In this document: in pieces, positions 15,620 through 40,978 of the stretch | Position numbering within the stretch: the first letter of the stretch is position 1 | Layout: the number at the start of each line of letters is the position of its first letter | Assembly (NCBI GenBank): GCA_964624145.1 | Contig: CAZUXT010000004.1 | Span: 31,189-95,188, forward strand | Origin: an uncultured Eubacteriales bacterium | Lineage (GTDB): Bacteria > Acidobacteriota > Aminicenantia > Aminicenantales > Aminicenantaceae | Length of the DNA stretch: 64,000 nucleotides | Direction: 5' to 3' | Notes under the pieces: model-generated | What the model was told of the DNA's origin: nothing | What the model saw: the letters and a program-made list of their open reading frames with translations, nothing else | Database searches by the model: none | Translations under genes and position numbers: made by a program

Positions 15620-15662
15620 TTGTACGTCTCCCTATTTATCTACGTACGTCCAGATAAAAAGG

Positions 15663-18005: not shown

Positions 18006-18047
18006 ATCTACCTCCCATTGGTTCTTTCACTACAAAATCCGGCACAC

Positions 18048-19946
18048 TCAGGTTCCGAGTGTAAAATAAAACACAGAGCCTTCTCCGGGCTTGCCTTCAG
18101 CACGGATAACACCTCCGTGTTTATGGATAATCCGTCTGGTAACAGCGAGCCCCATTCCATAACCCGGGAACACTTCATTCTCATTCAATCTCTTGAACGG
18201 GAAAAACAGCTCATCCACATCTTTCATCTTAAATCCGATCCCATTATCCTTTATGAAATACTCTTTAATACCTTTGTTCTCCTTCATCCCGAATTCAATT
18301 TTTATGTTTGGTTTTTTAGAAGAGTAAATCCAGGCATTTGTAAGCAGATTGTCAATAACAATGCTCAGCGTCCGGTTGTCTCCCCTGACTTTTATCCCTT
18401 CTTGAATGAGAAACTCGGCTTTCCGTTCGGGATTTCCTTCTCTTAGCTTAACTGACCTTTTCCTTACTAAGTCACTAAGATCGACTTGCTCAAGTTTTAA
18501 CCTGTCAAATGACAGTTCAGCCACTTCATTCAATCCTTTGGTCATCTGCTTCATGCGGTGAGCCGCTGCCCGGATCTGAATGAGTTTATCTTTACCTTTG
18601 TCGTTTACTCTATTAGCATACTCCTCTAAAAACGACTTGCTGAACTCATCTATTTTTTCCAGTGGAACTTCCAAATACTGTGCTGTGGCAGAGAAAAGAC
18701 CTTCCAGTTCATTATCTAAGGCTTTCCGTTGAACACTATTATCAAACGGGATTGACTTGAGTTCCTCATCTCTTTTGGGTCTTTCTTCAATACTGTCCTT
18801 CTTCTCTACCTCCTGCTTTTTTCTTTCTTCCTCTTCAGCTTTTTTATCAGTCACATCCCGAAACGCTGCAGCCATGTCTCCGGAAGGAAGCTTGCTGATA
18901 AAAAATTCTTTCCAGCCTGCCTTGTCACCCACCCTTAATTTGGAATAGGGAATATACTTCTCCACCTCAGTCTTCCATGCGCTCTGAAGAGCGTCCAGCA
19001 GTCCCGATTCTCTGACCATAGGGAAGACCTTTGTGATTTTTTTCCCAATAAGGTCACTGCGGTGTATCCGCTCTATTTTTTCACCTGTTGTGTTCAAATC
19101 CATAATAAGAAAATTTTTTCCCTCATCAACCACTTCAAAGACAAAAATACCATAAGCGCAGTTTTCAAATATCTCTCTGTATTTTTTCTCTGTCTTCTCC
19201 AATTCTGTGGCTTTCTGGCGCACTTTGTTCACTTCATCCAGCTTCATCCCGCGAAGATCCTCAACTTCCAATAAATATTTCAGCCGCTCCCGCAAAATCA
19301 TCAATTCGTTTTTCTTCTTTTTTTTGACTCGAACCCCTGCTTCCCCGGGCCCTGATATGTTCTTGGTCGCGGTCACAAGGTTTAATATAGGTCTGGAAAT
19401 AATATGCTGGAAGCTGCGGGCCAGAAAATAAACAAGCAGAAGCGCTAAAGCAAATAAAACAAGCATGATAAAAATATAAAGCTTGAGTTTTCTTTTCAGT
19501 TCCTCGGTAGAAGCCCGTACAAATATCTTTCCATACGTGTGTTCTTCATCTGAAACAGGTAAAAGAACATGAAGATATCCGTCCTTGAATTCAGAAGGTT
19601 TCATGTGTTCTAAATCAGGTGGAATAAATGTGTCTTCGGAAAGGCTGTAGGTCGCTAGCGCTTTTTCTTCAGGTCCGAAAAAGACACCATCCGTAACAAA
19701 GGGCACAGAGCCCAATACGGATAAGCAGGTCTCAAGGCCCTGTCTTTTCTTAGAAGCCAGCGCTTCCCTGCAGCATTCTCCTGCCAGGGCGGCATGATGC
19801 TCGATCTCATCTGTAAACCTCACTCTGTCTTCTCTGGTCTTGGCAAAGACAATCAGCGAAAATGTCAAAACAAGGACAATGGCCGATATGAGGAAAATAA
19901 TCCCTACGAGTTTTTTCCGGACAGTCAAATTCTGAAATAATCTCAC
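18048..19946 (-). CDS. Membrane-anchored PAS-domain sensor histidine kinase (orphan)
   Basis: It has two transmembrane helices, a PAS-like region, an HisKA H-box region, and HATPase_c G1/G2 boxes (DNGIGF...GYGMGLAV). No response regulator gene is adjacent. Confidence 0.8.
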   Translation of the reverse strand: MRLFQNLTVRKKLVGIIFLISAIVLVLTFSLIVFAKTREDRVRFTDEIEHHAALAGECCREALASKKRQGLETCLSVLGSVPFVTDGVFFGPEEKALATYSLSEDTFIPPDLEHMKPSEFKDGYLHVLLPVSDEEHTYGKIFVRASTEELKRKLKLYIFIMLVLFALALLLVYFLARSFQHIISRPILNLVTATKNISGPGEAGVRVKKKKKNELMILRERLKYLLEVEDLRGMKLDEVNKVRQKATELEKTEKKYREIFENCAYGIFVFEVVDEGKNFLIMDLNTTGEKIERIHRSDLIGKKITKVFPMVRESGLLDALQSAWKTEVEKYIPYSKLRVGDKAGWKEFFISKLPSGDMAAAFRDVTDKKAEEEERKKQEVEKKDSIEERPKRDEELKSIPFDNSVQRKALDNELEGLFSATAQYLEVPLEKIDEFSKSFLEEYANRVNDKGKDKLIQIRAAAHRMKQMTKGLNEVAELSFDRLKLEQVDLSDLVRKRSVKLREGNPERKAEFLIQEGIKVRGDNRTLSIVIDNLLTNAWIYSSKKPNIKIEFGMKENKGIKEYFIKDNGIGFKMKDVDELFFPFKRLNENEVFPGYGMGLAVTRRIIHKHGGVIRAEGKPGEGSVFYFTLGT

Positions 19947-24560: not shown

Positions 24561-25178
24561 CTATCTGTTAACTTTTTCGATCACTCCGCATGAAATCAGG
24601 ACCTCAACGATATCCATGACTTCATGCAGACAGTCATCACTGATGCCGGCTTTGCGTGAGATTTCCTCAAAGGTGCAGGGTTCTTCTGTGGGAAAAGGGA
24701 GATGAAACAGGAAACGTCCCTGGCAGTCTGTTAAGTTGTACCGTCTTTGCCTGCGGGACCGGCCCTTCCCTTGGAAAACATCAACAGCAGAAATCTTCTC
24801 ACCACGGCTCTCTTTAAACAGAGCTCCGGAATTTTTACGCTCTCTTATTCTCCATGCCATCTTAAAGGAATAGGCCGCAGGATCATAGAGCTTATCCAGA
24901 TCAAAGCGTATATTGACTTTTTGTTCCTTAAGAAAATATCTGAAATAAGGCCTTTTTCCCTCTGCGGCCTCCCTTTTATCCAGGATTCCTTCTCTCTCCA
25001 GTCCCTCCAGAAAATCCTGAGCTGTTTTGATATGGATTCCCAAGCGGGCTGCTGCTTCTGACGCGGAAATGTCATTATAAATAACAAGAAGCTTTAAAAA
25101 TTCCTGTGCGTAATCTTTTGCTATAAGAGCGGCCAGGCGGCGGGATTTTTCGAAAGGCGAAATCCTTTTGTTCTCCAT
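24561..25178 (-). CDS. Hypothetical winged-helix DNA-binding protein
   Basis: A 205-aa protein from the ATG (MENKRISP...) that is preceded by GGAGA. It has an HTH-like segment (ISASEAAARLGIHIKTAQDFLEGLEREGIL). The ORF-track upstream extension overlaps the neighbouring gene and is rejected. Confidence 0.45.
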   Translation of the reverse strand: MENKRISPFEKSRRLAALIAKDYAQEFLKLLVIYNDISASEAAARLGIHIKTAQDFLEGLEREGILDKREAAEGKRPYFRYFLKEQKVNIRFDLDKLYDPAAYSFKMAWRIRERKNSGALFKESRGEKISAVDVFQGKGRSRRQRRYNLTDCQGRFLFHLPFPTEEPCTFEEISRKAGISDDCLHEVMDIVEVLISCGVIEKVNR

Positions 25179-25194
25179 CGAATCATTCTCCTGC

Positions 25195-25965
25195 TCAGGT
25201 GGAATTGAGTCTATCCAGGATTTTTCCCGGTGTCCCATCTACATACCACTGTATGAACTGCTTGAACAACCCTCCCAAAGACACGCACAGCTGGTCAAAA
25301 GTCAGCTCTTCTTTGTACTTTCTATAGTCTCGCCGGGCAATCCGGACAGTGACATTTCCTGAATTTTCAAAGGCCACATAGGTTTCGTTATTATAACTTT
25401 TTTTGAATAAAATCATATACAGCCACATATATTCAGGAATGACAAGCACCACTCTATCGGATTCGATGAACGGAAAGACCACCACATATTTTTTAAGATA
25501 CCTGGACAATCCCAGTGCATCCTTCCTTGTAAAATTGGCAGGACCTGTAGGAAAAGGGCGATGGGTGAAGCCGTCTGCGGTTTCTTTCACAGGCTGGGCA
25601 GCCAGTTCCAAAATCTCCTTATAGCGCCAGTTGATTCTTTTTGAAATAAGGACAAAAATAAAAGCAAAAAGAAAGACCGCTGAAAGACCGGCAAAGCAAG
25701 GATGCCAGGGATGGTCAGCAAGCGGCGGGAGAAAAGTCAGACCCCAAAGAAAATACATGCTCACAGGGATCAAATAAATCAAATACCGGGTCCTCAGCAA
25801 TACAAAAAAATGCATCACGGTAAACAGGAATTGTATGGAACCGAACACCCAGTAAAAACCTGGGGGTCCGAAGAATATCCGGGCAAGTGCTACGGCTAAA
25901 AAGAGAACAAGAGTGAATAACCACATGCCAACCTGAACAGGCTTTAGTTTGACTTTCCTTTCCAT
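25195..25965 (-). CDS. Hypothetical integral membrane protein
   Basis: It has 5-6 predicted transmembrane helices and an AAGGAG ribosome-binding site 6 nt upstream of the ATG. It matches no family I can name. Confidence 0.5.
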   Translation of the reverse strand: MERKVKLKPVQVGMWLFTLVLFLAVALARIFFGPPGFYWVFGSIQFLFTVMHFFVLLRTRYLIYLIPVSMYFLWGLTFLPPLADHPWHPCFAGLSAVFLFAFIFVLISKRINWRYKEILELAAQPVKETADGFTHRPFPTGPANFTRKDALGLSRYLKKYVVVFPFIESDRVVLVIPEYMWLYMILFKKSYNNETYVAFENSGNVTVRIARRDYRKYKEELTFDQLCVSLGGLFKQFIQWYVDGTPGKILDRLNST

Positions 25966-26089
25966 TATAGCTCCTTTATTTAATTTTATTAAACTTCATT
26001 TCATTTGAAGTATATCTAAATCATAGTATCTTGTCAAGCATAAAATAAAATTGAAGGGAAAAAAGCAAAAAAGTATGGTGCCCCTGCTT

Positions 26090-27649
26090 TTAGAGGGGGG
26101 ATACTTCAGAGAATTCTATACCCTTGCTCTCAAGGGTTGTCCCCAGAGTTCTTTCCAGAGCAGCCAGGGCAAGGTTATAATCAATAATGGCTCTGATTTC
26201 ATTGTTTATGGCATCTGCCAGATCTCTTTGATACTGAAGCACCGTGTAGTTTGTAGAAAGTCCCACTCTCAGCCTTTTCTCTTCGGCTTTCAGTGTCTTG
26301 TCAGCCAGTTCTTTGGCAGCTTTATACGCCAGGACCCTCTCGTAACTGGACTTAACCATTCGTACAGCGTTTCTTATTTCCAGAAAGGCCTGCTGTTTCT
26401 CATTCTGCAGCCTCAGCTTTGCTTGTTTGAAGTTCATCTTTGCCTGTGCGAACTGAGCCCGGGAAAAAATCGTATTCACTGGAATGGAAAGAATCAATCC
26501 TACAGACCAGTTTTTATAGGCAAAAGAAAACGTATCTTCCAAAGCTTTGGTCGCATTTCCCGGTAATGTCCCTACAACCACATCTGTGAGCGGATTATTA
26601 TCCTGATAAAACAACTTGGTTCCGGAGACGCCGGGGCTCCAGTACCGAGCCTGCAGATCCAGGCCGGGAAGAAGCTGGTTCCTGGCGTATTTTAATTCAA
26701 TATCCCTGCTTTCTATGTCAATCCGGCTTGCTTCAAGGTCAGGCCGGTTCTGTATTCCTATAAGCAGTGCCTCATCAAGTTCTATATCCCTCTCTTTGTA
26801 AGTGGGCCTATCAGAAGGAGTTATCTTTATTTCCTTTATATCCCCATCCCCTGCAAGATTGATAATGGTTTTTAACGCATCCTCATTATTCTTGACCAGA
26901 TACTCGGCCTCTATGATATCAGCTTCTCTGGCTGCGACTTCAGATTCAGCACTCAAAATCTCTATGGGAGCCATCATACCGACTTCCACTTCTCTCTTGT
27001 TTTTCGCCAGGAGATCCCGGGCAAGAGCCAAAGATTGTTTCTTTGCATTAAGGTTTTCTATGCTGTACACATACTCCCAATAAGCGGCCTCAACATCATA
27101 AATCGTCTGTATGAGCGATACTTTAAAATTTGCCTCTGATATTTGAGTGCTTTTATTCGCTACAATGATCTCCCTCCGGTTCACTTTAAATCCAAAATCT
27201 CTTAAAAGAGGCTGGGTCAATGTGAAGGACAAGGTGCTTCCATAGCGGGGATTTATGGTCAGATACTTCGCAGTGGTATCACTTTTGTAAGAATAAATAT
27301 ACGCTGAAAGAGTCCCCCCTGTAGGAAAGAGCTGTTCCAACTGGACTGAGTAATCATTAAAGAGAGAAGTGACCTTGCCTGCGGACTCAATCCAGGAATA
27401 GGAAGGATTATTGGTCTCCTCTGTGCCGTAATTGAGAGAGAGCGAAGGCAAAAATTTCTCTTTGGCAAGGGAAGCTGACATGTCAGCTATTTCCGGATTT
27501 AAGATTTCCACCGCTATACTGAGATTGTTTTCCAGCGCCAAGATTATACAGTCTTCAAGAGCAAGCGACTTTTGATTCTCCTGTCCGCTAAAATTGATTG
27601 TTGAAATAAGAAAAACGGCCATGCCCACGGCTGTTATTTTTTTATTCAT
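26090..27649 (-). CDS. TolC-family outer-membrane efflux protein
   Basis: The protein has a signal peptide (MNKKITAVGMAVFLIST), tandem TolC/OEP repeats with coiled-coil segments, and an AGGAGA ribosome-binding site. It is the last gene of the efflux operon. Confidence 0.85.
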   Translation of the reverse strand: MNKKITAVGMAVFLISTINFSGQENQKSLALEDCIILALENNLSIAVEILNPEIADMSASLAKEKFLPSLSLNYGTEETNNPSYSWIESAGKVTSLFNDYSVQLEQLFPTGGTLSAYIYSYKSDTTAKYLTINPRYGSTLSFTLTQPLLRDFGFKVNRREIIVANKSTQISEANFKVSLIQTIYDVEAAYWEYVYSIENLNAKKQSLALARDLLAKNKREVEVGMMAPIEILSAESEVAAREADIIEAEYLVKNNEDALKTIINLAGDGDIKEIKITPSDRPTYKERDIELDEALLIGIQNRPDLEASRIDIESRDIELKYARNQLLPGLDLQARYWSPGVSGTKLFYQDNNPLTDVVVGTLPGNATKALEDTFSFAYKNWSVGLILSIPVNTIFSRAQFAQAKMNFKQAKLRLQNEKQQAFLEIRNAVRMVKSSYERVLAYKAAKELADKTLKAEEKRLRVGLSTNYTVLQYQRDLADAINNEIRAIIDYNLALAALERTLGTTLESKGIEFSEVSPL

Positions 27650-27674
27650 TTTGAATCTCCTAAAATTCCTCATT

Positions 27675-28343
27675 TTAAAGCTCATCCACTATCCATCCGT
27701 CAAGCAGATTAATGATCCTCCGTCCATAGGCCGCATTTTTTTCTGAATGAGTGACCTGAATGATGGTGGTTCCGGCCTCATTAAGCTCTTTGAGAAGCTT
27801 CATCACATCTTCGCCTTCTTTTGTATTCAAATTACCCGTTGGTTCATCCGCAAGTATTAATTTGGGACTTATGATAACGGCTCTGGCCACCGCGACTTTC
27901 TGCTGCTGCCCTCCTGAAAGCTGGTTCGGAAAAAGATTCTTTTTTCCCACGATATTAAACCGATCCAGCATGTCACATACTTTTCCCTTGCGTTCAGAGC
28001 CTTTTACTTTTTTATAAAGAAGAGGGGTCTCCAGATTCTCATAAACAGTCAGGTCGTCTATAAGATGGTACTGTTGGAATACGAAACCAATATGATTTTT
28101 ATGAAGGTCTGTGAGCTGTTTTTCGGTCATCCTGTGGACCGGTCTGTCATAAAAGTAATACTCCCCCTTTGAGGGCTTATCAAGCATCCCTAAGATATAA
28201 AGAAGGGTTGATTTGCCGGCACCGGAAGGGCCCATTATGGTGATGAACTCACCTTCTTTGACATCAAGGTCTATATTTCGAAGAGCATAGGTCTTGACGA
28301 ACCCGGATGAATAATATTTGTTTATCTTTTTACATTTTATCAT
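27675..28343 (-). CDS. ABC transporter ATP-binding protein (MacB/LolD type), second copy
   Basis: Walker A (GPSGAGKST), signature ([14 protein letters not shown]) and Walker B (ILADEPT) are present. An AAGGAGA ribosome-binding site precedes the start. Confidence 0.9.
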
Positions 28344-28384
28344 TCCCGTCTCCTTTTCTTTTCAATAAATCCTGCCATGTCCCT

Positions 28385-28660
28385 TTACTTTTTTTTCAAT
28401 TCTCCCTTTCTTCTGAACATAATAGGGATATTCGCATCCGTCGGCATGCCAATTTCAATAAGCTTCCAGTCTTTATTGTATTCCTTAATAACGCGTTTTA
28501 TCACATCAACCTTATCCACACTGTCACCATTATGGTCTTCCCAGTCTATGATCTCGACTTTGTAGTGCAGTGTTCTTTTTTTTCCGTTTATTTTCACTTC
28601 TATATCAATATTCTGTTCGGCTCCTAATGTTGGTATTTGAAGCACGACTTCTCTCATCAT
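28385..28660 (-). CDS. Hypothetical small protein (91 aa) inside the efflux operon
   Basis: A strong Shine-Dalgarno site (GAGGAGA) lies 4 nt upstream of ATGATG. The protein has no transmembrane helix and is Lys/Asp-rich. I cannot assign a family. Confidence 0.5.
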   Translation of the reverse strand: MMREVVLQIPTLGAEQNIDIEVKINGKKRTLHYKVEIIDWEDHNGDSVDKVDVIKRVIKEYNKDWKLIEIGMPTDANIPIMFRRKGELKKK

Positions 28661-28866
28661 ACACTCTCCTCAAATGTTATTTTAAAACAATCGCTTGTCC
28701 ACGCTTATTTAATAAGCAAAAAATATGCCATTCTCTCTTCTTGAGGAATAAATTTAAACTTATGTTTTTTTTTGTAAAAACTGTCCGTTATTGAACATCT
28801 TCTGTCCTGACAGCGGACACTTATTTAAATCAATGAAAAGCTGTCTCCTATATAAAGACACCCGGG

Positions 28867-31191
28867 TCATTCATAGCGTATCGAATCAGCCGGATTTGCA
28901 AAAGCGGATTTCAATGATTGATATCCGACAGTAAGGAGCGCAATGGTCAAAGCCAAGCCGCCTGAAAGCAAATACACCCACCAGCTGATGCTGATACGGT
29001 AGGCATAGTTCTGCATCCACTGGCTCGCAACATACCAGGCAATGGGCAAGGCAATGACATTTGCCGCCAGTACCCATTTTGTGAAATCCTTAGAAAGCAT
29101 GAGGACAACACTTGAAACAGAAGCACCGAGAACCTTGCGTATTCCGATTTCTTTGGTCCGTCTTCCCGCCATATAACTGGCCAATCCAAAAAGGCCCAAA
29201 CAAGAAATAAATATGGCAAGAAAAGTGAAGTCATTGATGATCCGTCCCATTCTCTGGTCAGTTTGATACTGCCTGTTAAAAATATCATCCAGAAAATCAT
29301 ACTCAAAAGGATAACCAGCCGCAAACTGCTTCCAGGTAGCCTCCATAGCCCGAAGAGCTGACTGGGCTCTTTCCGGATTCGTGCGGACAAAGATATAATT
29401 ATGAGGCCAATTCGTGGTGAGAGTGAACACCACTGGTTTGATTTCATCATGCAGAGAACGGGAATGGAAATCCTTCACAACACCGATGATCCGGCCCTCA
29501 CGCGTCCATATAGAGAAAAGCTTGCCCAAGGGAGATTCAAGTCCTGTAAACCTTACCGCGGCCTCATTAATGACGTAATTCTGTGCATCCGTTGTAAAAT
29601 CACGCGAAAAGCTCCTCCCCTCCGCAAAATCCATTTGAAAGGTCTTAAAATAATCATAATCCACGGCTGTGAAATTTATCACTTCATACTGGTCAGGTCC
29701 TCTCCCTTCCCAGTATACGGGATTGATATTTCCTATGCTTAAAGGGACATTGGAAGCTGAAGTGACGCTCAGAATATCGGAATTCTCTAACAGTGACTGT
29801 TTGAAAGCATCATAATGATTTTGAATCTCCTGATTCATGGGCAGTCTCAAAACATAGCTGCGGTTAAAACCTAAATCCTTATTCCGGATATAATTCATCT
29901 GCCTTTGCAGAACAATGGAGCAGAAAATAAGAACCACCGCAACAGTGAACTGAAAAACCACAAGAACTCTTCTTAATACCGGACTCTTTAAATTCAGTGC
30001 GCCGGACTCCCTCAGCGCTTGTATCGGAGTGAAGGACGAAAATAGAAGAGCCGGATAACTCCCGGAAAAAACACCTGTGAAAAAAGCTACCCCTAAAAGC
30101 GATAAAATCAACGGGACATTATGTGCGGGATCAAAGGTCAACTGTTTTTGAGTCAGATTATTGAAACTCGGCAGAAAAAGGGAAACCATAAGAACGGCCA
30201 GAACAAATGCCATGAATGATATCAACACAGCCTCTCCAAAAAACTGCTTTATAAGATGACTTCTATTGGCTCCGACCACTTTTCTCAGGCCAACTTCCAC
30301 AGCCCGGTTTCCTGATTTTGCTGTGGTGAGATTTATAAAATTTATGCAGGCAACGATCAGGATGATAAAGGCTATGGCAGAAAAGATATAAATATAAAGG
30401 ATGCTCCCTGCATCATTTAATCCGTAAAGGTGCATGCGTGAAACGGGCTGGAGGTCATTGATAACCGTTTTGTTCTCAACCCTTTGATCGTATTTCATGG
30501 TAGTGCCGGAAACTTTCGGCTTCAAATCTTCGAGAGAAATGTTTTCCTCTAACATGACAAAAGCCTCTGTTTCCAGAGCCCAGGTTCTGATCCGCTCCTC
30601 TCCCAGGATTTGAACCGGCACCAGCACATCGAACTGAAGGGTTGAATTGGAAGGAACGTTTTGTATCACTCCGGTTACTTTAAGGTCCATGTTGTTATTG
30701 ACATTCAGGATCTTACCGACAGGATCTTCATTCCCGAAATACTTGTGGGCGGCTTTTTCAGATAATATGATCGAGTCTCTTCCGGACAAGGCCGTATCCG
30801 GATTACCCTGGATGAGGGGGAAAGAAAACATATGGAGAAAGTCCGGATCCACAAATCCAACTTCTTCATAATTGGAAGATTCCTCATATCTCGCTAAGAG
30901 ATTGATCGTCCTAAACCTGGTGGCCCTTACGATCTCCGGAAAATCATCCTTAAGAACATCACTGATAGCCCAGGGACTGGTCGATGTCCATTCTCCCTCA
31001 AGACTGGAGACGACCCTGTAAAGCCGCCCCTCATTGTCATAAAACCGGTCATAACTGGTCTCATCCTGTATCCACAGAAATATGAGGATGCAGCAGGCCA
31101 TTCCCACGGCCAATCCGACAACATTGATAAAAGAATAGACTTTATACTTCTTGATATTCCTAATAGCTGTTTTAATATAGCTTCCCACCAT
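28867..31191 (-). CDS. FtsX-family ABC transporter permease (double FtsX/MacB-like)
   Basis: The N-terminus (MVGSYIKTAIRNIKKYKVYSFINVVGLAVGMAC) and the C-terminus (...NPADSIRYE) are typical. It lies between the two ATPase genes. Confidence 0.85.
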   Translation of the reverse strand: MVGSYIKTAIRNIKKYKVYSFINVVGLAVGMACCILIFLWIQDETSYDRFYDNEGRLYRVVSSLEGEWTSTSPWAISDVLKDDFPEIVRATRFRTINLLARYEESSNYEEVGFVDPDFLHMFSFPLIQGNPDTALSGRDSIILSEKAAHKYFGNEDPVGKILNVNNNMDLKVTGVIQNVPSNSTLQFDVLVPVQILGEERIRTWALETEAFVMLEENISLEDLKPKVSGTTMKYDQRVENKTVINDLQPVSRMHLYGLNDAGSILYIYIFSAIAFIILIVACINFINLTTAKSGNRAVEVGLRKVVGANRSHLIKQFFGEAVLISFMAFVLAVLMVSLFLPSFNNLTQKQLTFDPAHNVPLILSLLGVAFFTGVFSGSYPALLFSSFTPIQALRESGALNLKSPVLRRVLVVFQFTVAVVLIFCSIVLQRQMNYIRNKDLGFNRSYVLRLPMNQEIQNHYDAFKQSLLENSDILSVTSASNVPLSIGNINPVYWEGRGPDQYEVINFTAVDYDYFKTFQMDFAEGRSFSRDFTTDAQNYVINEAAVRFTGLESPLGKLFSIWTREGRIIGVVKDFHSRSLHDEIKPVVFTLTTNWPHNYIFVRTNPERAQSALRAMEATWKQFAAGYPFEYDFLDDIFNRQYQTDQRMGRIINDFTFLAIFISCLGLFGLASYMAGRRTKEIGIRKVLGASVSSVVLMLSKDFTKWVLAANVIALPIAWYVASQWMQNYAYRISISWWVYLLSGGLALTIALLTVGYQSLKSAFANPADSIRYE

Positions 31192-31229
31192 AGTACGCCC
31201 TTTTAATAAAGTAAATAAAGCCTTAACAT

Positions 31230-31448
31230 TTACTTTTGTTGAACTCTGAACAGCACCCCTTTGAGATAACCAGAATCATTGATCTCAGCAATGTATAATC
31301 CTGGCTGCATATGGGCCTTTTTTTTGAGCATGGGTGCTGACAGATTATTCAGAAGGTCACCTGCTTCCCATTTTTTGTTATTGGTATCACACAAAAATAT
31401 TGGCGCGTTCTTTTCTACAAGTTTTTCTAGAATTTCACGGAGAAACAT
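31230..31448 (-). CDS. Hypothetical small protein (72 aa) inside the efflux operon
   Basis: The ATG (MFLREILEKL...) is preceded by a GAGGA site. The ORF-track start is a GTG 18 nt upstream. The C-terminus (GLYIAEINDSGYLKGVLFRVQQK) loosely resembles secretion-tail or beta-strand motifs, but I cannot assign a family. Confidence 0.4.
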   Translation of the reverse strand: MFLREILEKLVEKNAPIFLCDTNNKKWEAGDLLNNLSAPMLKKKAHMQPGLYIAEINDSGYLKGVLFRVQQK

Positions 31449-31502
31449 TTTATCCTCTACAATCACTTAGCCTGACCTATTCCTAAAAAAGGCCGCCAAG
31501 CA

Positions 31503-32192
31503 TCATATCATAAACTCTTCTTGAATATTCTCTGAGACAACGTGACCATCGAAAAGATGGACTGTACGGTTGGCATACTCTGCATAGCTTGGAGAGTGCG
31601 TCACCATTACGATAGTTGTGCCCGCCTCATGAAGCTCGCTCATAATTTTCATGACTTCTTCACCGTGCGCCGAATCCAGATTACCAGTGGGCTCATCAGC
31701 AAGTATCAGTTTAGGCCGGGCTACAACGGCTCTTGCCACTGCCACTCTCTGCTGTTGTCCTCCGGATAACTGCTGGGGAAAGTGATTCTTCCTGGCAATT
31801 ATTTCCATCTGCTCAAGGACTTCACTGACTCTCTTCTTCCGATCCCCAGAAGAATAACCAAGGTATAGGAGGGGCAGTTCCACGTTCTCGAATACGGTCA
31901 GCTCATCGATCAAATTAAAACTCTGGAATACAAAACCGATGTTGGATTTGCGCAGATTTGCACGTTTTCGTTCAGAAAACGAAGAGACTTCAGTGTCAAC
32001 AAAATAATATTTGCCGTCTGTTGGCTTGTCAATCAAGCCCAGTACATTAAGCAGAGTGGATTTTCCGCATCCTGAAGGTCCCATAATCGCCACATATTCT
32101 CCTGCTTTAATATCCAGATTCACATTGTTCAGGGCTGTTGTTTCTACCTCCTCTGTAGTGTACACCTTTTTAAGGTCCTCAGTTTTAATCAT
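31503..32192 (-). CDS. ABC transporter ATP-binding protein (MacB/LolD type), first copy
   Basis: Walker A (GPSGCGKST), signature (LSGGQQQRVAVARA), Walker B (ILADEPT) and an H-loop (VTHS) are present. Confidence 0.9.
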   Translation of the reverse strand: MIKTEDLKKVYTTEEVETTALNNVNLDIKAGEYVAIMGPSGCGKSTLLNVLGLIDKPTDGKYYFVDTEVSSFSERKRANLRKSNIGFVFQSFNLIDELTVFENVELPLLYLGYSSGDRKKRVSEVLEQMEIIARKNHFPQQLSGGQQQRVAVARAVVARPKLILADEPTGNLDSAHGEEVMKIMSELHEAGTTIVMVTHSPSYAEYANRTVHLFDGHVVSENIQEEFMI

Positions 32193-32258
32193 GTTTGTTC
32201 TCCTTACAATAGTTTCCTCTTTTTATATTATATAAGACGTAAACTAACTGCATTTAGT

Positions 32259-33515
32259 TTACTTTAAAACCAATCTTTCCATATCACCAAAACTCTCATA
32301 GGAGGAAGTTATGACTTTTTCTCCGGGCTCCAGCCCTTCAAGGACTTCATAAACATCAGGATTCTGCCTCCCCAGCTTTATTCTCCTCTTCACGGCTATA
32401 TTCTCAGATTCATCCACAACATACACCCAATTTCCTCCGGTGGTCTGATAAAACCCTCCTCTCGGGAGGAGCAACGCTTCAGAAATATCTCCCAGCTCAA
32501 GCCGGATGTGAAGTGTTTGCCCGCGGGTGATTCCTTCAGGCTCTTCATCTACAAATTCCATGTCAACCTCAAAACGTCCCTCTCTGACCTCAGGATATTT
32601 CTTGGTTACCTTAAGTATATATTCTTGACCGGCAAACTCAAATTCGCCCGAACGTCCCTCTTCTACACGAGCTATATAATGCTCATCAATCTGTGCTCTG
32701 ACTTTGAAACCCTCAAAGACATCTATCTGTCCGATGTTTTGACCTGCAGATTTTGACTGACCGATTTCCGCATCCAGAGAGGTGAGATGGCCTGATACGG
32801 GCGCTCTGATAGTCAATTTTTTCAGCCTGTTCTGGATGATCTCCATGTTGCCCTGCATTCGCTCGACCTGACCTTCCAAAGCGTTGACCTGATTTTCTCT
32901 GAATTCCAGATCCTTTTGCTGACTCTCAATGGTCAATCCCCTGCTCTTTTTGAGATACTCATATTGATCTTTTGCCAGCTCGTACTCATGTATTGAAATC
33001 AAATCATCTTCATATAATTTCTCGTAGCGTTCATATGTTCTTTTCTGCTGCTGAAGGTTATTATCGATAGTTGTCAGTTCCTGGCTCAGTTGGAGCCTGT
33101 AGCGTTCCATCTCCAGCCGTGTATTTCGAAGGTTGTTGACCTGCTGGAACAATTCAGCTTCCCTCCACATGCTGTTTATCAACAAATCTGTATTTGCCAG
33201 CTTTAATATCCTATCTCCCTTTTCCAGAACATTTCCCGCTTTAATATAGATCTCCTCCACTGTTCCACCTTCTTCCGCACTTAAATAGAACTGATATTTA
33301 GGAAGAACATTACCCATAATGGGAATGAATTCCTGGAACGGCCCTCTGCTGACCGTTGAAACCGTCAGTCTCTCGGCTTTTACATTTAAGGATGATTTAC
33401 TCACTCCAAATATGAGCATATAAACAACCACAATGACAAACAATCCCGCAGACGCAAAAGTTGCGATTTTTTTTAGGGTCCACTTCTTTTTTTTGATTTT
33501 TTTGTCCATACTCAT
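32259..33515 (-). CDS. HlyD-family periplasmic adaptor (MacA-like membrane fusion protein)
   Basis: It has an N-terminal transmembrane anchor, a long coiled-coil, and beta-barrel/lipoyl-like domains. The start is taken at MSMDKK, with an AGGAGA Shine-Dalgarno site. The ORF-track start 15 nt upstream is also possible. Confidence 0.85.
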   Translation of the reverse strand: MSMDKKIKKKKWTLKKIATFASAGLFVIVVVYMLIFGVSKSSLNVKAERLTVSTVSRGPFQEFIPIMGNVLPKYQFYLSAEEGGTVEEIYIKAGNVLEKGDRILKLANTDLLINSMWREAELFQQVNNLRNTRLEMERYRLQLSQELTTIDNNLQQQKRTYERYEKLYEDDLISIHEYELAKDQYEYLKKSRGLTIESQQKDLEFRENQVNALEGQVERMQGNMEIIQNRLKKLTIRAPVSGHLTSLDAEIGQSKSAGQNIGQIDVFEGFKVRAQIDEHYIARVEEGRSGEFEFAGQEYILKVTKKYPEVREGRFEVDMEFVDEEPEGITRGQTLHIRLELGDISEALLLPRGGFYQTTGGNWVYVVDESENIAVKRRIKLGRQNPDVYEVLEGLEPGEKVITSSYESFGDMERLVLK

Positions 33516-33649: not shown

Positions 33650-33665
33650 TGCAATAATTGTGCCA
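33650..33665 (-). promoter_or_regulatory. Sigma-54 (-24/-12) promoter, TGGCAC-N5-TTGCA, reading toward the HlyD-family gene
   Basis: The plus strand at 33650-33665 reads TGCAATAATTGTGCCA, so the minus strand reads TGGCACAATTATTGCA. This is an exact match to the sigma-54 consensus and lies about 135 nt upstream of the HlyD-family start. Confidence 0.7.
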
Positions 33666-33718: not shown

Positions 33719-33759
33719 TGTTCATTGAAGAACAAATACTGTTCAAAATCGAACAGTTC
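33719..33759. promoter_or_regulatory. Putative enhancer (UAS): three overlapping TGTTC-N5/6-GAACA palindromes
   Basis: TGTTC is at 33719-23, GAACA at 33730-34, TGTTC at 33740-44 and GAACA at 33751-55. These lie 54-94 bp upstream of the -24 element, next to the divergent NtrC-type activator gene. Confidence 0.5.
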
Positions 33760-33883
33760 GTGTATAATACATCCTTATTCATGTGTCATTCAGCCTGGGA
33801 AAAAAAGAAACAGAAAGGCACATATCTTGCATCTACTTATAAAAAAGAAAACCAATAACAAAAAATAGGATGGAGATGCGAAT

Positions 33884-35260
33884 ATGAAAAAAAAATCAGG
33901 AAAAATTCTTGTCATAGATGATGATGAAGATATTCTTCAGGCAGCCCGTCTTCTTCTGAAACAACACGTTAGTCAGGTACATACTGAAAAAACACCCGGC
34001 TCGATTCCCACGCTCCTAAAAAACGACAGTTATGATGTCATTTTCCTGGACATGAACTTTGCCAAAGGTGCAACCAGCGGAGAAGAAGGATTCCATTGGC
34101 TCGATAAAATTCTAGAATTGGATCCCAGTGCTGTCATAGTCCTGATAACAGCCTATGGAGATGTGGAAATGGCAGTAAAAGCGATCAAAGAAGGTGCCAC
34201 TGATTTCATACTCAAGCCCTGGCAGAACGAGAGATTGATTGCTACCCTTTCCGCGGCTATGAATTTAAGGAAAAGCCGCACAGAAGCAAAAAGCCTCCGC
34301 TCCAAACAAAAACAGCTCAGTCAGGACTTAGACCAGCCTTTTCATGAATTCATAGGTAAAAGCCCTGCCATTCAAAACGTTTTTTCTGACATACAAAAGC
34401 TTGCCCAAACAGATGCCAATGTTTTGATACTGGGTGAGAACGGCACAGGAAAAGAATTGGTCGCAAGGGAACTCCACCGCCAGTCTTCAAGAGAGGGAGA
34501 AATTTTCATCAGCGTGGACATGGGAGCATTGAGTGAAACCCTTTTTGAGAGTGAACTTTTCGGCCACACTAAAGGAGCTTTTACAGACGCAAAAGAGGAC
34601 CGTGCAGGACGATTCGAGATAGCGTCGGGAGGAACTCTATTTCTGGACGAAATCGGAAATCTGCCTCTGACCCTCCAGGCCAAACTGCTCACGGTCATTG
34701 AAAACAGGAAAGTAACCCGGCTCGGTTCCAATAAGGTCATTGAAATAGATGTGCGTCTCATATGCGCTACGAACATGAATATACATGAAATGGTCACTAA
34801 TGATAAATTCAGACAAGACCTGCTCTATCGAATAAATACAGTGGAAATAAGGATTCCTCCTTTAAGTGAAAGGATTGAGGACATCCCCCTTTTAGCAGAA
34901 CATTTTCTCAACATTTATTCCAAAAAATACAACAAACCCATAAGTAAAATCAGTCCCTCCACAATGAAACGCCTTGAAAAGTACAAATGGCCGGGAAATG
35001 TTAGAGAACTCCAGCATGCTTTGGAAAGATCTGTGATAATGAGTGAATCCCGCACTTTACAGCCTTCGGACTTTTTCTTTTCTACTTCGGAATCAAAAGG
35101 GAACTCTCTGGCATATAAAGACTTTAATCTATCCGGTCTTGAAAAACTGGCCATACGTAAGGCTTTAGATAAACACAACGGAAATATATCCAATACAGCC
35201 AAGGAACTGGGTATATCAAGAGCTTCCCTTTACAGAAGAATGGAGAAATATGGCTTATAA
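33884..35260 (+). CDS. Sigma-54-dependent response regulator (NtrC/Fis family enhancer-binding protein)
   Basis: It has a receiver domain ([11 protein letters not shown]...D55), an AAA+ sigma-54 interaction domain ([21 protein letters not shown]) and a C-terminal Fis-type HTH. Confidence 0.9.
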
Positions 35261-36572
35261 AAATTTCAGAATCAACTGCTTCATCCGCATTTTAGTACTT
35301 GCGCTGACCATCCTTGCCTTTTTTCTCATCATGACTCATACCTCTTTATACAGTGCTTTGATCATAATCGGAGCTGCCATTATCTATCAAACCTATGCTT
35401 TAATCCATTATGTCGAAAAAACAAACAGGGATTTAACCCGTTTTTTCGAATCGATAAAATACAGCGACTTCTCCCAATCCTTTAAAGATTACGGAAGGGG
35501 AAAATCATTTGATTCGTTGAAAAATTCTTTTTCTGAAGTCATAGAGGCTTTCAGAAAGACAAGAGCGGAAAAAGAGGAACAAGCCCGTTATCTGCAGACA
35601 GTTGTCAAACACATAGGAGTCGGACTGATCGTTTTTCAACCAAATGGAGAGGTTGAACTTATAAACAAAGCGGCAAAGCAGCTTCTCGGAATCAACCAGC
35701 TCAAAAACATAAAATCTCTTAGCTCTAAAAAACTCGTCAAAGAACTTTTAAAGCTCCAACCAAGAGAAAAAGCCACTGTAAAGGTCGAAATCGACAATGA
35801 AGTCCTGCATCTCTCTCTCTATGGAACGGAATTCAAACTCGGAGGTAACAAATATTCCCTTATATCCTTACAAAACATCCACAGTGAGTTGGAGGAGACT
35901 GAAATAGAAGCATGGCAGAAGCTTATAAGAGTCCTCACTCATGAAATCATGAATTCTGTAACTCCCATATCCTCACTGGCTTCCACAATCCATGGTCTGG
36001 TAAATGAAAACATGATTTCTGAATCTCTCACCGATGTCAAGGATGCGGCCCAGACTATAAAGAAAAGAAGCCAAGGGCTGATGCATTTTGTGGATGCTTA
36101 CAGAAATTTAACATTGATAAAAAAACCGCATTTTGAAATATTTCCGATCAAAGAACTTTTCAACAGAATTGAAAAACTGATGCAGGCAGATTTTAAAGCA
36201 AAGAAGATAAAGCTTAAAATCAAGATTAAACCCGAGACTCTCGAACTCACTGCGGACACAGAACTCCTGGAGCAGGTACTGATAAATCTTCTGCTTAATG
36301 CTCAACAGGCAGTGGAAGGCCGCAAAAAAGCAGAAGTCACTCTGGACGCAAGGCTGGACAAACGGGGAAAAATCATCATTGAAGTCAAAGATAACGGACC
36401 CGGTATTCCTAAAGACAATCTTGAGAAAATATTCATACCATTCTTCTCAACCAAAAAAGGGGGCTCGGGAATAGGTCTGAGCCTTTCCAGGCAGATCATG
36501 CGTCTCCATAAAGGCTCTATAGGAGTGCATTCAAATCCTGATACAGAAACATCCATCATCCTCAGCTTCTAG
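35250..36572 (+). CDS. Sensor histidine kinase (partner of the NtrC-type regulator)
   Basis: It overlaps the response-regulator stop by 11 nt. It has two N-terminal transmembrane helices with no periplasmic loop, an H-box ([12 protein letters not shown]) and HATPase_c motifs (DNGPGIP...GGSGIGLSL). Confidence 0.85.
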
Positions 36573-38517: not shown

Positions 38518-38712
38518 GCTGATACTCCTTTTTCTTTGCTTGCCATCTAGAAATGCAAATAATATGCCAAAATAAATCTAAGGCATAACAGGAGGAAACC
38601 GGGTGAGGAGAGTGACCTATTTTGAATGCAGTTGACCGTTTTCTGGTACAACCAAGATACACACAGAATCCTTGAATATATGAGCTAAATCTTATATAGT
38701 CTGGATTATTCA

Positions 38713-40068: not shown

Positions 40069-40978
40069 ATTTCTGGATACACCGGAAATAAAAGAGACTG
40101 ATATTGTGAATTTCCTCACCCGATGGGGAGTCAAGCAAAAGGAAACAAAATTCATGGGAATAAAAGGCAAAAAAGGCCGTACGCTTTTTGTTAAAATTCA
40201 CATTTCCGGGAAAAAAGGAAAATCAAAAAGAGGATCCTCTCCGACCCTGGGCATTGTCGGACGTCTCGGAGGAATAGGAGCCAGGCCTGCTCAGACCGGG
40301 CTGGTTTCAGATGCTGACGGAGCCATCACTGCTCTTGCCGCTGCAGCAAAAATGGCTGCCATGCGGGAAAAAGGGGATTTTCTCCAGGGAGACATCATCA
40401 TCTCCACCCATCTGTGCCCCAGGGCACCTGTCATTCCCCACGATCCCGTTCCTTTTATGGGCTCTCCTGTTTCCATTGCTGTCATGAACAAACATGAAGT
40501 CGACTCCCGCATGGATGCCATCCTTTCTGTGGACGCAACCAAAGGAAACAGAATCATAAACCATAGAGGTTTTGCCCTATCCCCTACGGTCAAAGACGGA
40601 TATATATTAAAAGTCAGTGATTCCCTTTTGGATATCATGCATTCAGTAACCGGCAGGCTTCCGGTTGTATTTCCTATCACTCTCCAGGATATAACACCCT
40701 ATGAAAATGGAGTCTTTCATCTCAACAGTATTATGCAACCCTGCACAGCAACAAATGCCCCTCTCGTTGGAGTAGCCATTACAAGTGAAGTACCTGTGCC
40801 CGGATGCGCTACAGGAGCCAATAATCTCATGGATCTGGAAGGCGCAGTCCGTTTTGTTTTGGAAGTCGCTAAAGCATTTGGAAAAGGAAAATGTGAATTC
40901 TACGATAAAAAAGAATTCCAGAAACTGCTCACCCTCTACGGTTCCTTGGAGCATCTGAAAACAGCGGGGCGGAAATAA
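40037..40978 (+). CDS. Uncharacterised conserved protein co-transcribed with the NCS1 permease
   Basis: A 313-aa soluble protein. Its start overlaps the permease gene by 32 nt. It matches no family I can confidently name. Confidence 0.6.
   Translation: MALKQVIETYEFLDTPEIKETDIVNFLTRWGVKQKETKFMGIKGKKGRTLFVKIHISGKKGKSKRGSSPTLGIVGRLGGIGARPAQTGLVSDADGAITALAAAAKMAAMREKGDFLQGDIIISTHLCPRAPVIPHDPVPFMGSPVSIAVMNKHEVDSRMDAILSVDATKGNRIINHRGFALSPTVKDGYILKVSDSLLDIMHSVTGRLPVVFPITLQDITPYENGVFHLNSIMQPCTATNAPLVGVAITSEVPVPGCATGANNLMDLEGAVRFVLEVAKAFGKGKCEFYDKKEFQKLLTLYGSLEHLKTAGRK

Follow-up and report, generated by a model that had tools for sequence, protein, structure and literature searches.

By its domain content, the minus strand of the window (the whole 64,000-nucleotide stretch of DNA analysed here) encodes a tripartite ABC efflux system from Candidatus Aminicenantes that is of type VII (MacB-like). 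ORF and domain scans give the order HlyD, ATP1, s72, permease, a 206-bp gap, s91, ATP2 and TolC (Table 1). This order, the ORF sizes and the AT-rich gap (28866..28661; 33% GC vs 43% in the region) are as an initial annotation had described them, and it had also rightly placed two paralogous, divergent MacB/LolD-type ATPases around a single double-FtsX permease; its label 'MacAB-TolC-like' is borne out by the domains found. The adaptor passes the NCBIfam RND_mfp model (143.8 bits, cut-off 94.9) and is DarC-like at 213 bits, under the cut-off of 450. The outer-membrane factor is TolC- and NodT-like, under both cut-offs, and would be 519 aa long from the Met at 27649, the start chosen by gene callers in relatives. 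The halves of the in-locus permease are 22% identical (E 2e-8), and a second, 'orphan' permease is 37% identical to it over the full length. For both, the best full-length NCBIfam match is the ADOP family TIGR03434 (Acidobacterial duplicated orphan permeases), but the scores of 307 and 317 bits, respectively, are far under the cut-off of 622, so they are relatives rather than members of that family.

Table 1 Features of the pump locus, its regulatory genes and the orphan permease, in window coordinates
Feature	Coordinates	Strand	Basis
Orphan duplicated FtsX permease, 788 aa, no neighbouring ATPase	13253..15619	-	MacB_PCD x2, FtsX x2
TolC-family outer-membrane factor, 531 aa	26090..27685	-	Pfam OEP x2
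ATPase-2 (ATP2), 222 aa, MacB/LolD-type NBD	27675..28343	-	Pfam ABC_tran
s91, 90/91-aa soluble protein, conserved	28385..28660	-	328 clusters at 90% identity
Predicted sigma-54 promoter P2 TGGCATATTTTTTGCT, 55 nt upstream of s91	28715..28730	-	perfect match
Enhancer sites within the 206-bp gap	28782..28819		motif match and sequence
FtsX permease, internally duplicated, ADOP-like, 774 aa, 4+4 TM, two MacB periplasmic core domains	28867..31191	-	Pfam MacB_PCD x2, FtsX x2
s72, 72-aa soluble basic protein, conserved, no known family	31230..31448	-	21 homologous clusters
ATPase-1 (ATP1), 229 aa, MacB/LolD-type NBD	31503..32192	-	Pfam ABC_tran
HlyD/MacA-type periplasmic adaptor, 418 aa from ATG 33515 (423 aa from GTG 33530)	32259..33515	-	Pfam HlyD_3, HlyD_D23
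Predicted sigma-54 promoter P1 TGGCACAATTATTGCA, upstream of HlyD	33650..33665	-	perfect consensus match
Two enhancer (UAS) sites TGTYC-N6-GRACA, 33740-33755 and 33719-33734	33719..33755		exact motif matches
Sigma-54-like -24/-12 box AGGCACATATCTTGCA, upstream of RR54 gene	33816..33831	+	one-mismatch match
NtrC/AtoC-type sigma-54 enhancer-binding response regulator (RR54), 458 aa	33884..35260	+	Pfam Response_reg, Sigma54_activat, HTH_8
Sensor histidine kinase, 440 aa	35250..36572	+	Pfam HATPase_c, PAS_8

ATPases and small proteins

ATP1 and ATP2 are 55% identical, and both retain Walker A, Q-loop, signature, Walker B and H-loop. ATP1 belongs to the canonical lineage (consensus Walker A GPSGCGKST, D-loop GNLD) and ATP2, with its D-loop fixed as GNLN (Asp-to-Asn), to a second one in which this residue is never Asp (N, Q or H). 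There are 23 lineage-fixed differences, among them Walker A C/A and D-loop D/N, and identity is at least 61–67% inside each lineage and at most 60% across them. Neither ATPase is a pseudogene, an outcome that the initial annotation had named as fatal to its reading: dN/dS is 0.014–0.03 for ATP1 and ATP2 alike, with dN of 0.02–0.04. Judged by sequence, they are two old lineages, separately conserved and catalytically intact by motif. The best NCBIfam matches of ATP1 (DarD-like, MacB NBD and LolD) are each under the curated cut-off, so its typing is family-level only, and those of ATP2 likewise all fall short. In relatives, ATP1 always comes after HlyD, and TolC always directly follows ATP2. An Asp kept by ATP1 and a non-Asp D-loop in the second lineage fit an asymmetric pair, and a hetero-oligomer of ATP1 and ATP2, as first proposed, is plausible.

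The Pfam search suggested for the two small ORFs returned no match. Neither did NCBIfam, PADLOC or PHROG for s72, whose homologues are 61–97% identical, nor NCBIfam or PDB for s91, which forms 114 clusters at 50% identity. The AF2 model of s91 (pLDDT 82.6) shows beta-beta-alpha-beta-beta after a conserved extension at the N-terminus; it has no fold match in PDB or BFVD, and so no structural neighbour that hints at function. Non-synonymous divergence is low (s91, dN 0.055, pN 0.05 vs pS 0.81; s72, dN 0.11, dN/dS 0.05–0.06) and synonymous sites are saturated, which points to strong purifying selection on both. Hydropathy gives no TM segment in either, and signal peptides are likewise absent. We therefore read both ORFs as translated, cytoplasmic and strongly constrained proteins by prediction, with s91 founding an unannotated protein family.

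The two proteins do not, however, form the repeated 'ATPase plus small ORF' module that had been proposed: they show no similarity by BLASTP (hhalign probability 0.5%), and s72 lies downstream of ATP1 whereas s91 lies upstream of ATP2, so there is no duplicated module. In relatives they are often mutual neighbours. Distant s91 relatives (24–45% identity) occur in the contexts HlyD-ATPase-s91, permease-ATPase-s91, ATPase-s91 and permease-s91-permease, and the family by this evidence accompanies MacB-type ATPase/permease genes well outside this lineage. One locus with both ATPases has neither small protein (L082), another lacks s91 (L017) and a third has only one of the two (L043); the gene content of L082 and L017 means that the small proteins are not obligatory for the two-ATPase frame.

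Two-component system and predicted sigma-54 promoters

The RR54 and HlyD genes are divergently oriented in the window, as they are in many relatives; the RR54 product is AtoC/NtrC/ZraR-like in NCBIfam, under every equivalog cut-off. The kinase, whose gene is syntenic with the pump genes in relatives, has two N-terminal TM helices (residues ~10–28 and ~34–52 by hydropathy) with ~4 residues between them, then PAS and HATPase_c domains.

The window has three perfect sigma-54 matches where 0.14 are expected, each on the minus strand in a gap directly upstream of an ORF start; exact enhancer matches also number three (0.18 expected). In relatives, sigma-54 boxes are conserved upstream of HlyD (as P1), RR54, s91 and permease genes, and a box identical to P2 precedes s91 or permease genes in many of these loci. 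The box upstream of RR54, conserved in at least 15 related loci, probably serves predicted autoregulation. Between the two divergent promoters lies the UAS pair, 90 and 69 nt upstream of the -24 box. In the 206-bp gap, an exact enhancer TGTTCAATAACGGACA lies at -67 (28797-28782) and an N7-spaced variant TGTCCGCTGTCAGGACA at -89 (28819-28803), a spacing that matches the one at the HlyD promoter and in related loci. The enhancer motif occurs 26 times in 758 kb of related loci, where 24 of 53 perfect sigma-54 boxes have it 40–250 nt upstream, nearly always at 90 ± 1 nt.

The 206-bp gap is thus an enhancer plus predicted sigma-54 promoter with the architecture found upstream of HlyD, and therefore two promoter-defined units are predicted, HlyD-ATP1-s72-permease and s91-ATP2-TolC. 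The sites at ~-90 and ~-68 are most simply read as putative binding sites of the divergent NtrC-type regulator, which would place the whole locus in the predicted regulon of the adjacent two-component system. Neither this regulon nor the enhancer-dependent promoter predicted in the gap figured in the initial annotation.

Related loci and known systems

A check of synteny found that 16 further species combine the two ATPase lineages in a single locus and that both small ORFs are conserved, so the arrangement is not coincidental. From sequence conservation, the locus is a real and conserved MacB-type pump variant in which two small uncharacterised proteins accompany two different ATPase motors. 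The 'modular pump' of the initial annotation is in line with the number of permease genes between ATP1 and ATP2, which varies from 0 to 4 and is often none: in 10 of the 16 species the ATPases have no permease gene between them, and in 6 the fetched locus contains none. Operons of the compact form HlyD-ATP1-ATP2-TolC (L060, L062) contrast with ATP1 and ATP2 side by side, then four permeases (L086).

One comparison is with an uncharacterised system with the same kind of regulator pair, adaptor and duplicated permeases, in which a sigma-54 two-component system and HlyD accompany one ATPase (ATP1-type, 60–83% identical) and a permease array. Among 80 ATP1-seeded loci from soil, sediment and gut metagenomes, the ATP1-type ATPase is the sole one, beside HlyD and permease arrays, in 77, so ATP1 homodimers evidently suffice elsewhere; s91 is absent from 79 and TolC is in cis in only 4. 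On this gene content, our locus is a lineage-specific elaboration of that widespread base system.

The darobactin exporter DarBCD (NF038008, NF038010, NF038007) has the same trio of 777-aa duplicated permease, adaptor and separate ATPase, but the window proteins score well under all three equivalog cut-offs, no darA/darE-like genes were identified, and the locus differs in its two ATPases and TolC in cis. Group II ECF transporters (EcfA/EcfA'/EcfT, common S components) offer a functional analogy only, with no homology implied: two co-encoded paralogous ATPases form the energising module for several membrane components encoded elsewhere, but the membrane folds are unrelated and ECF systems are importers without adaptor or duct.

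With E. coli MacAB-TolC, of the type VII/MacB-FtsX superfamily, the locus shares the HlyD-family adaptor, a 4-TM FtsX permease with MacB periplasmic core, the MacB/LolD-type NBD and the TolC-family duct. Unlike MacAB-TolC, it has an NBD unfused to the permease, an internal tandem duplication in place of a permease homodimer, two NBD paralogues, two extra small cytoplasmic proteins, predicted sigma-54/two-component control and a variable number of in-locus permeases. MacB works by mechanotransmission, presumably used by the window pump too (PMC5985334). Also of type VII, with separately encoded NBDs, are LolC/LolE, which are non-equivalent halves, and the fused double permeases YbbP and BceB; BceAB signals to an intramembrane-sensing kinase that resembles the loop-less kinase found here (PMC5985334; general knowledge). 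LolCDE, YbbAP and BceAB have one NBD gene each, used as a homodimer, vs two here, and no s91- or s72-like partner, adaptor or TolC; YbbP and BceB have 10 TM helices, two of them linkers, where the window permease has 4+4.

Proposed working of the pump and alternative readings

The best overall explanation, in which our confidence and our doubt are about equal, is a sigma-54-controlled tripartite type VII (MacB-like) efflux machine with a conserved chassis and exchangeable permeases. The parts of this machine are the HlyD adaptor, a single-polypeptide duplicated FtsX permease, the TolC duct and two separately encoded NBDs, with the invariant HlyD-ATP1 and ATP2-TolC gene pairs bracketing the 0–4 permease genes of relatives. 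The kinase, whose TM helices leave hardly any external loop, probably responds to a signal from the membrane or linked to the transporter, on which the whole gene set would be induced. The in-locus permease and paralogues elsewhere, such as that at 13253..15619, would dock onto the common HlyD/TolC chassis and use MacB-style mechanotransmission to expel substrates that are periplasmic or membrane-borne. The permease is pseudo-dimeric, and its two non-equivalent sites for NBD docking would most likely take one ATP1 and one ATP2 as an asymmetric heterodimer, a point on which we stop a little short of even confidence. The small proteins are best read as accessory factors: s91, together with s72 in loci that have it, may serve in the cytoplasm as an accessory or regulatory subunit of the complex of NBDs and permease. 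Counted against this model are the 77 ATP1-seeded loci with the ATP1-type ATPase alone, two ATP2 loci that lack ATP1 and HlyD within 10 kb (L010, L029), the two-ATPase frames without one or both small proteins (L017, L082), the absence of a structural neighbour for s91, the separate predicted promoters of ATP1 and ATP2 in the window and a sister species (L016) with a permease-s91 spacer of only 44 bp and no internal promoter.

Those separate promoters, one for each half of the locus, would suit two alternative homodimeric motors, ATP1 (with HlyD) and ATP2 (with s91 and TolC), each powering duplicated permeases and possibly serving different subsets of the paralogues encoded in the locus and in trans; on this view, two related systems with adaptor, duct and regulator in common would have merged in tandem. 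So would the one-ATPase base arrays, loci in which HlyD-ATP1-permease x3-s91 lacks ATP2 (L051, L055, Neomarinimicrobiota-type), and an ATP2-like ATPase with non-Asp D-loop as the only one beside distant s91 members (L079, L081). Two Aminicenantes loci (L010, L029) that also speak for this reading have the two-component system and permeases-s91-ATP2-TolC with ATP1 and HlyD absent within 10 kb, but since HlyD is missing as well, the remainder, probably HlyD-ATP1, must lie elsewhere in those genomes. Two full motors are also hard to rationalise with one or zero permease genes in a locus, and both lineages are co-retained in the 16 further species, operons without permeases and ATP1-ATP2-permease x4 included. 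We consider this reading unlikely, if worth keeping in view.

It is improbable that s91, instead of being a transporter subunit, is a feedback regulator of the sigma-54 activator, an anti-activator as in PspA/PspF or HrpV/HrpS. The gene is often the first one, 55–58 nt past a sigma-54 promoter (window, L019-21, L044, L058, L060, L062, L063), and directly follows the two-component genes in L058, L060 and L062, but distant members directly follow MacB-type ATPase genes with no sigma-54 regulator in the fetched flank (8 kb in L074 and L079, much shorter in L081), and comparisons of sequence and fold found no resemblance of s91 to known anti-activators.

Enterotoxin STII is one of the small peptides that MacB pumps export (general knowledge; review PMC5985334). 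This, together with DarC and DarD as top NCBIfam matches of the adaptor and both ATPases and DarB as second for the permease, all far below cut-offs, could suggest a dedicated RiPP- or bacteriocin-type exporter like DarBCD, with the small ORFs as cargo or immunity proteins. Here the initial annotation, which had offered substrates, immunity factors or accessory factors, stands in its last part only: s72 and s91 have no recognisable leader, their conservation near that of the ATPases is unusual for precursor peptides, the prediction for s91 is a folded domain of 90 aa, some frames do without one or both proteins, and no radical-SAM, protease or other maturation gene was identified among the locus genes scanned. 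We regard this as very improbable. Chance juxtaposition or a decaying duplicate, with one ATPase redundant and the small ORFs spurious, is refuted by the conservation data: intact catalytic motifs, purifying selection on all four genes and recurrence of the arrangement in at least 16 other species.

For the preferred model of a common chassis with exchangeable permeases, the 788-aa orphan permease would be a candidate trans-encoded client. The ~780–800-aa duplicated MacB_PCD+FtsX architecture is common to ADOP proteins, to which, to our knowledge, no ATPase, adaptor or function has been assigned; the in-locus permease, unlike these, is not an orphan. ADOP-like paralogues also lie away from ATPase genes in the permease arrays of L045-L052, and the two-motor locus may show where such "orphan" pump permeases obtain their power.

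Gene content and class of the efflux locus

The initial annotation had described a MacAB-TolC-like operon in which a duplicated module of an ATPase plus a small ORF surrounds a single double-FtsX permease. ORF listing and domain scans reproduce its gene order exactly on the minus strand between 26090 and 33530 (see the table), and its reading of the parts holds: the two ATPases (ATP1 and ATP2) are paralogous and divergent (55% identical, with Walker A, Q-loop, LSGGQ, Walker B and H-loop kept in both), duplication of the permease is recognisable from its two halves (22% identity, E 2e-8) and its 4+4 TM pattern, and the 206-bp gap is AT-rich. The repeated module does not survive, since the 72-aa and 91-aa ORF products (s72 and s91) have no detectable similarity by BLASTP or by profile-profile comparison and are placed differently, s72 downstream (3') of ATP1 and s91 upstream (5') of ATP2. 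Homology between s72 and s91 was ruled out by BLASTP and hhalign.

Features of the efflux locus, its predicted promoters and neighbouring genes in the window
Feature	Position	Strand	Description
HlyD-family adaptor	ATG 33515, alternative GTG 33530	minus	418 aa; HlyD_3/HlyD_D23, RND_mfp above cut-off
ATPase-1 (ATP1)	32192..31503	minus	229 aa; ABC_tran
s72	31448..31230	minus	72-aa ORF
Permease	31191..28867	minus	774 aa; two MacB periplasmic core domains, two FtsX domains
Spacer permease-s91	28866..28661		206 bp; 33% GC vs 43% for region
s91	28660..28385	minus	91-aa ORF
ATPase-2 (ATP2)	28343..27675	minus	222 aa; ABC_tran
TolC-family protein	27685..26090	minus	OEP x2
Sigma-54 box	33665..33650	minus	upstream of HlyD
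Sigma-54 box	28730..28715	minus	in 206-bp gap, 55 nt before s91
Sigma-54 box TGGCATATTATTTGCA	38569..38554	minus	upstream of FecR/DUF6600 gene
Sigma-54-like box	33816..33831		one mismatch; precedes response-regulator gene
Response regulator	33884..35260	plus	NtrC/AtoC-type, divergent
Histidine kinase	35250..36572	plus	
FecR + DUF6600 protein	within 36610-38569	minus	635 aa; adjoins kinase gene
Cytosine/purine-type permease + DUF1177 protein	38713-40978		encoded together
Second duplicated FtsX permease	13253..15619	minus	788 aa
M1-family peptidase	15663..18005	minus	43 bp upstream of second permease
Histidine kinase	18048..19946	minus	632 aa
256-aa multi-TM protein + 225-aa winged-helix protein	24561-25965	minus	downstream of TolC
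Sigma-70-like promoter matches	26037..26009, 25992..25964		downstream of TolC

By every criterion that sequence can test, the locus falls within the type VII/MacB superfamily and the tripartite pump class. PF02687 and PF12704 each match the permease twice above gathering scores, with 4+4 TM segments by hydropathy; both ATPases match ABC_tran with motifs intact in alignments; and a HlyD/MFP adaptor and a TolC-family outer-membrane factor are encoded with the transporter. The best NCBIfam matches of ATP1 and ATP2 are DarD, MacB NBD, LolD and FtsE, every score lying under its curated cut-off, and their typing is therefore at family level. The darobactin exporter DarBCD has a similar architecture, but the locus stays below the equivalog cut-offs (locus score/cut-off in bits: DarB 127/700, DarC 213/450, DarD 271 and 246/375), and the scan of the locus genes identified no darA precursor or darE radical-SAM gene. 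Likewise, both duplicated permeases of the window resemble ADOP (TIGR03434) in architecture yet miss its curated cut-off of 622.3 bits, scoring 307 (in-locus) and 317 bits (13253..15619).

According to reviews (PMC5985334), the MacB/FtsX family includes fused double permeases whose NBDs have genes of their own. Two NBD paralogues or partners of the s91/s72 type are not mentioned in the papers on the family found by our literature search, which also returned nothing on ADOP energisation, two-ATPase MacB systems or sigma-54-controlled FtsX arrays. The MacB-like efflux operon itself is the ordinary, common part of the locus; the genuine, testable leads are a conserved chassis without permeases, the second lineage of ATPases, a new family of small proteins and a clean regulatory code.

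Two ATPase lineages and small proteins across relatives

Sediment metagenomes contain identical and almost identical copies of the locus, SRR8556428 and JGI 3300031654 being among the sediment samples in which the organism is present; the named relatives are Candidatus Aminicenantes MAGs. A search with s91 yielded 55 species-representative genome loci, which we annotated together with contigs from exact look-ups. Synteny, which the initial annotation had left to be checked, is borne out: the small ORFs are conserved and the frame [histidine kinase-sigma-54 response regulator, divergent] HlyD-ATP1-{s72, s91, 0-4 duplicated permeases}-ATP2-TolC recurs, with HlyD-ATP1 and ATP2-TolC as invariant pairs across the annotated relatives. 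Both ATPase lineages lie together in one locus in 16 species besides the window, so that two paralogous NBD genes are co-conserved as in heterodimeric-NBD types such as EcfA/A' and OppD/F. A permease between the ATPases is absent in 10 of these 16 species, and in 6 it is absent from the whole fetched 9-20 kb. Examples, with L017, L043, L054, L056 and L068 as frames without a permease, are HlyD-ATP1-s72-ATP2-TolC in two independent assemblies (L017 and L018), HlyD-ATP1-s91-ATP2-TolC (L043, L054, L056, L068) and a compact HlyD-ATP1-ATP2-TolC operon (L060, L062); the genes for s72 and s91 frequently neighbour each other, with either one first (L032, L034, L038, L040, L041, L073). Elsewhere, permeases-s91-ATP2-TolC stand alone beside the two-component system (L010, L029), and Neomarinimicrobiota-type loci (L051, L055) have HlyD-ATP1-permease x3-s91 without ATP2 or TolC.

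When metagenome contigs were scanned independently with ATP1 as the seed, 80 loci (L082-L161) were recovered; their ATPases share 60-83% identity with ATP1 and carry its Cys/Asp signature wherever motifs are readable. At least one full duplicated permease is found in 56 of the 80, HlyD in 45 and a sigma-54 response regulator in 35; TolC (4/80), a second, ATP2-type ATPase (3/80) and s91 (1/80) are rare. These neighbourhood counts indicate that the base system of sigma-54 two-component system, HlyD and permease array is common and has a single ATPase. The window locus is a lineage-specific elaboration, distinguished by an additional ATPase, by small proteins and by a TolC gene in cis. Human-gut and soil contigs within this set encode ATP1-type ATPases 60-70% identical to that of the window, in arrays of up to seven duplicated FtsX permeases, often with a sigma-54 two-component system and HlyD; no description of this very widespread system was found in the literature search.

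The ATPase orthologues form two clean groups (within-group identity >=61-67%, between-group <=60%) separated by 23 lineage-fixed differences, and dN/dS against the sister species (L016) is 0.014-0.03. Walker A reads GPSGCGKST in ATP1 and GPSGAGKST in ATP2, and the D-loop GNLD and GNLN, with D173 in ATP1 and N173 in ATP2; the D-loop residue of the second lineage is always non-acidic (N, Q or H), whereas ATP1 keeps Asp. This naturally non-acidic D-loop bears on how asymmetric ABC motors work. A further second-lineage variant, with Walker A GPSGSGKST and a D-loop His, lies directly 3' of ATP1 in L086 (10731-11393) and inside a permease array in L111 (16660-17340).

We slightly favour, at somewhat less than even chances, an asymmetric ATP1-ATP2 heterodimer on the permease. 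Supporting it are the joint retention of both lineages with 0-1 permease, the compact ATP1-ATP2 operons, the interface-motif differences fixed between lineages and the two non-equivalent docking sites of the permease. The existence of single-ATPase relatives and of ATP2-only loci, and the separate promoters for ATP1 and ATP2 in the window, point instead to alternative homodimers, a reading that we consider somewhat less likely.

Both small ORFs are translated and constrained, as synonymous sites are saturated against the sister species (pS 0.65-0.8) while non-synonymous divergence is low (s91 pN 0.05; s72 dN/dS 0.05-0.06). For s91 we found 328 homologous clusters at 90% identity (mean column identity 70%) and 114 at 50% identity, the latter including members only ~25% identical and all 85-100 aa long; s72 has 21 homologous clusters (61-97% identity). 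Both proteins are basic, with no TM segment and no signal-like stretch. Neither matched Pfam, the search proposed at the outset, or NCBIfam, PADLOC or PHROGs; for s91, a PDB sequence profile search gave no match, and tblastn of s91 and one distant relative against plasmids found nothing. AlphaFold2 modelling of s91 reached pLDDT 48.6 with a shallow alignment and pLDDT 82.6 (pTM 0.70) with a diverse one. In the latter, confident model, a conserved extension at the N-terminus leads into two beta hairpins with helices between them; Foldseek of this model against PDB and BFVD returned no significant neighbour. Distant s91 relatives (24-45% identity) adjoin MacB-type genes as HlyD-ATPase-s91, permease-ATPase-s91, ATPase-s91 or permease-s91-permease. 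The s91 family is well populated, unannotated and tracks MacB-type ATPases. This association across deep divergence, the cytoplasmic character and the conserved, unstructured N-terminus argue for a candidate accessory subunit on the cytoplasmic side of the NBD-permease complex. Action as an anti-activator is the minor alternative to this reading, and the data argue against the substrate or immunity roles first suggested.

Predicted sigma-54 promoters and enhancer sites

Perfect TGGCAY-N5-TTGCW sigma-54 boxes number three in the window, where 0.14 would be expected, and no shuffle yielded as many; all are on the minus strand in gaps just 5' of an ORF start. The boxes are kept at corresponding places in relatives, where an identical TGGCATATTTTTTGCT precedes s91 or permease genes. 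The palindrome TGTYC-N6-GRACA likewise occurs three times (0.18 expected), at -90 and -69 nt relative to the HlyD promoter and 67 nt upstream of the gap promoter, which also has an N7-spaced variant at -89. In related loci it occurs only 26 times in 758 kb; it stands 40-250 nt upstream of 24 of their 53 perfect sigma-54 boxes, and the distance is nearly always 90 +/- 1 nt. The -24 GG and -12 GC elements are correctly spaced, and the divergent EBP combines Response_reg, Sigma54_activat and HTH_8. The palindrome pattern is an enhancer signature, with putative binding sites for the adjacent NtrC/AtoC-type activator. With its box and signature, the AT-rich gap is a predicted enhancer-dependent promoter, and the locus is two promoter-defined units in one predicted regulon. 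Box plus palindrome at -90 provide a defined regulatory code, usable for regulon prediction in metagenomes.

In the sister species, the permease-s91 spacer is 44 bp (L016 12580-12625 vs window 28661-28866), without sigma-54 promoter or enhancer. The split into two units is therefore evolutionarily labile, and, as this is the closest different species, the 206-bp promoter cassette was recently gained or lost. TGGCATATTTTTTGCT with the -90 enhancer also precedes permease genes in other Aminicenantes, which suggests that promoter-bearing cassettes are shuffled. Hairpins predicted in the gap RNA (z = -3.5) overlap the enhancer palindromes, so that a terminator role is inseparable from a DNA-site role; Rfam matched no family in the locus, gap included.

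The FecR/DUF6600 gene has a perfect sigma-54 box 5' but lacks the TGTYC-N6-GRACA enhancer; gene and box hold the same position in L016, L017 and L020. It may be under a different activator.

Kinase, permeases and a possible shared chassis

The kinase divergent from the pump genes has two TM helices ~4 residues apart (window 35250-35410) and no periplasmic sensor domain; this close spacing marks it as an intramembrane-sensing type. It is reminiscent of the transporter-coupled kinases of Bce-like systems, in which BceS reads the activity of its FtsX-type transporter. In the best-supported of the proposed mechanisms, a membrane- or transporter-linked signal would activate the kinase-regulator pair, and the regulator, bound at the -90/-69 enhancers, would switch on both units, and its own gene, from their sigma-54 promoters. 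The products would build a MacB-type tripartite pump, in which the pseudo-dimeric single-polypeptide permease would link NBD closure to movements of its periplasmic domains and so drive substrates into the HlyD/TolC duct.

Acidobacteriota and, apparently, Bacteroidota-rich habitats harbour very large paralogous families of duplicated "orphan" FtsX permeases. In the ADOP trait of lacking a neighbouring ATPase gene, the two permeases of the window differ: two ATPase genes flank 28867..31191, and 13253..15619, ~13 kb from the locus and 37% identical to the in-locus permease, has no adjacent ATPase and lies beside the M1 peptidase and a kinase. Neither a sigma-54 box nor the TGTYC-N6-GRACA palindrome was found near it (13253-19946).

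The conserved set is adaptor, two ATPases and duct, with permease genes in variable number or absent, which makes "one chassis, many permeases" a concrete, testable model. Because the chassis genes persist without an in-locus permease and an orphan paralogue lies in the window, it is probable that the permeases are exchangeable clients and that some of them are encoded in trans. The stronger proposal casts an obligate asymmetric ATP1/ATP2 heterodimer, together with s91 (and s72), as the cytoplasmic motor for an HlyD/TolC chassis shared by many duplicated FtsX permeases, which would be interchangeable and in several cases encoded at other sites in the genome; we regard it as improbable. If true, it would bring the modularity of group II ECF transporters to a type VII exporter, supply the energising partners that have long been missing for ADOP-type 'orphan' permeases and establish s91 as a new class of subunit associated with NBDs.

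Downstream of TolC, the 256-aa multi-TM protein belongs to no family, and the 225-aa winged-helix protein is TrmB-like with weak Csa3/CARF-like matches. L017 lacks the 256-aa gene, which is present in the sister species and has an unannotated 203-aa gene after it; in the sister species the cytosine/purine-type permease-DUF1177 pair is also syntenic with the pump region.
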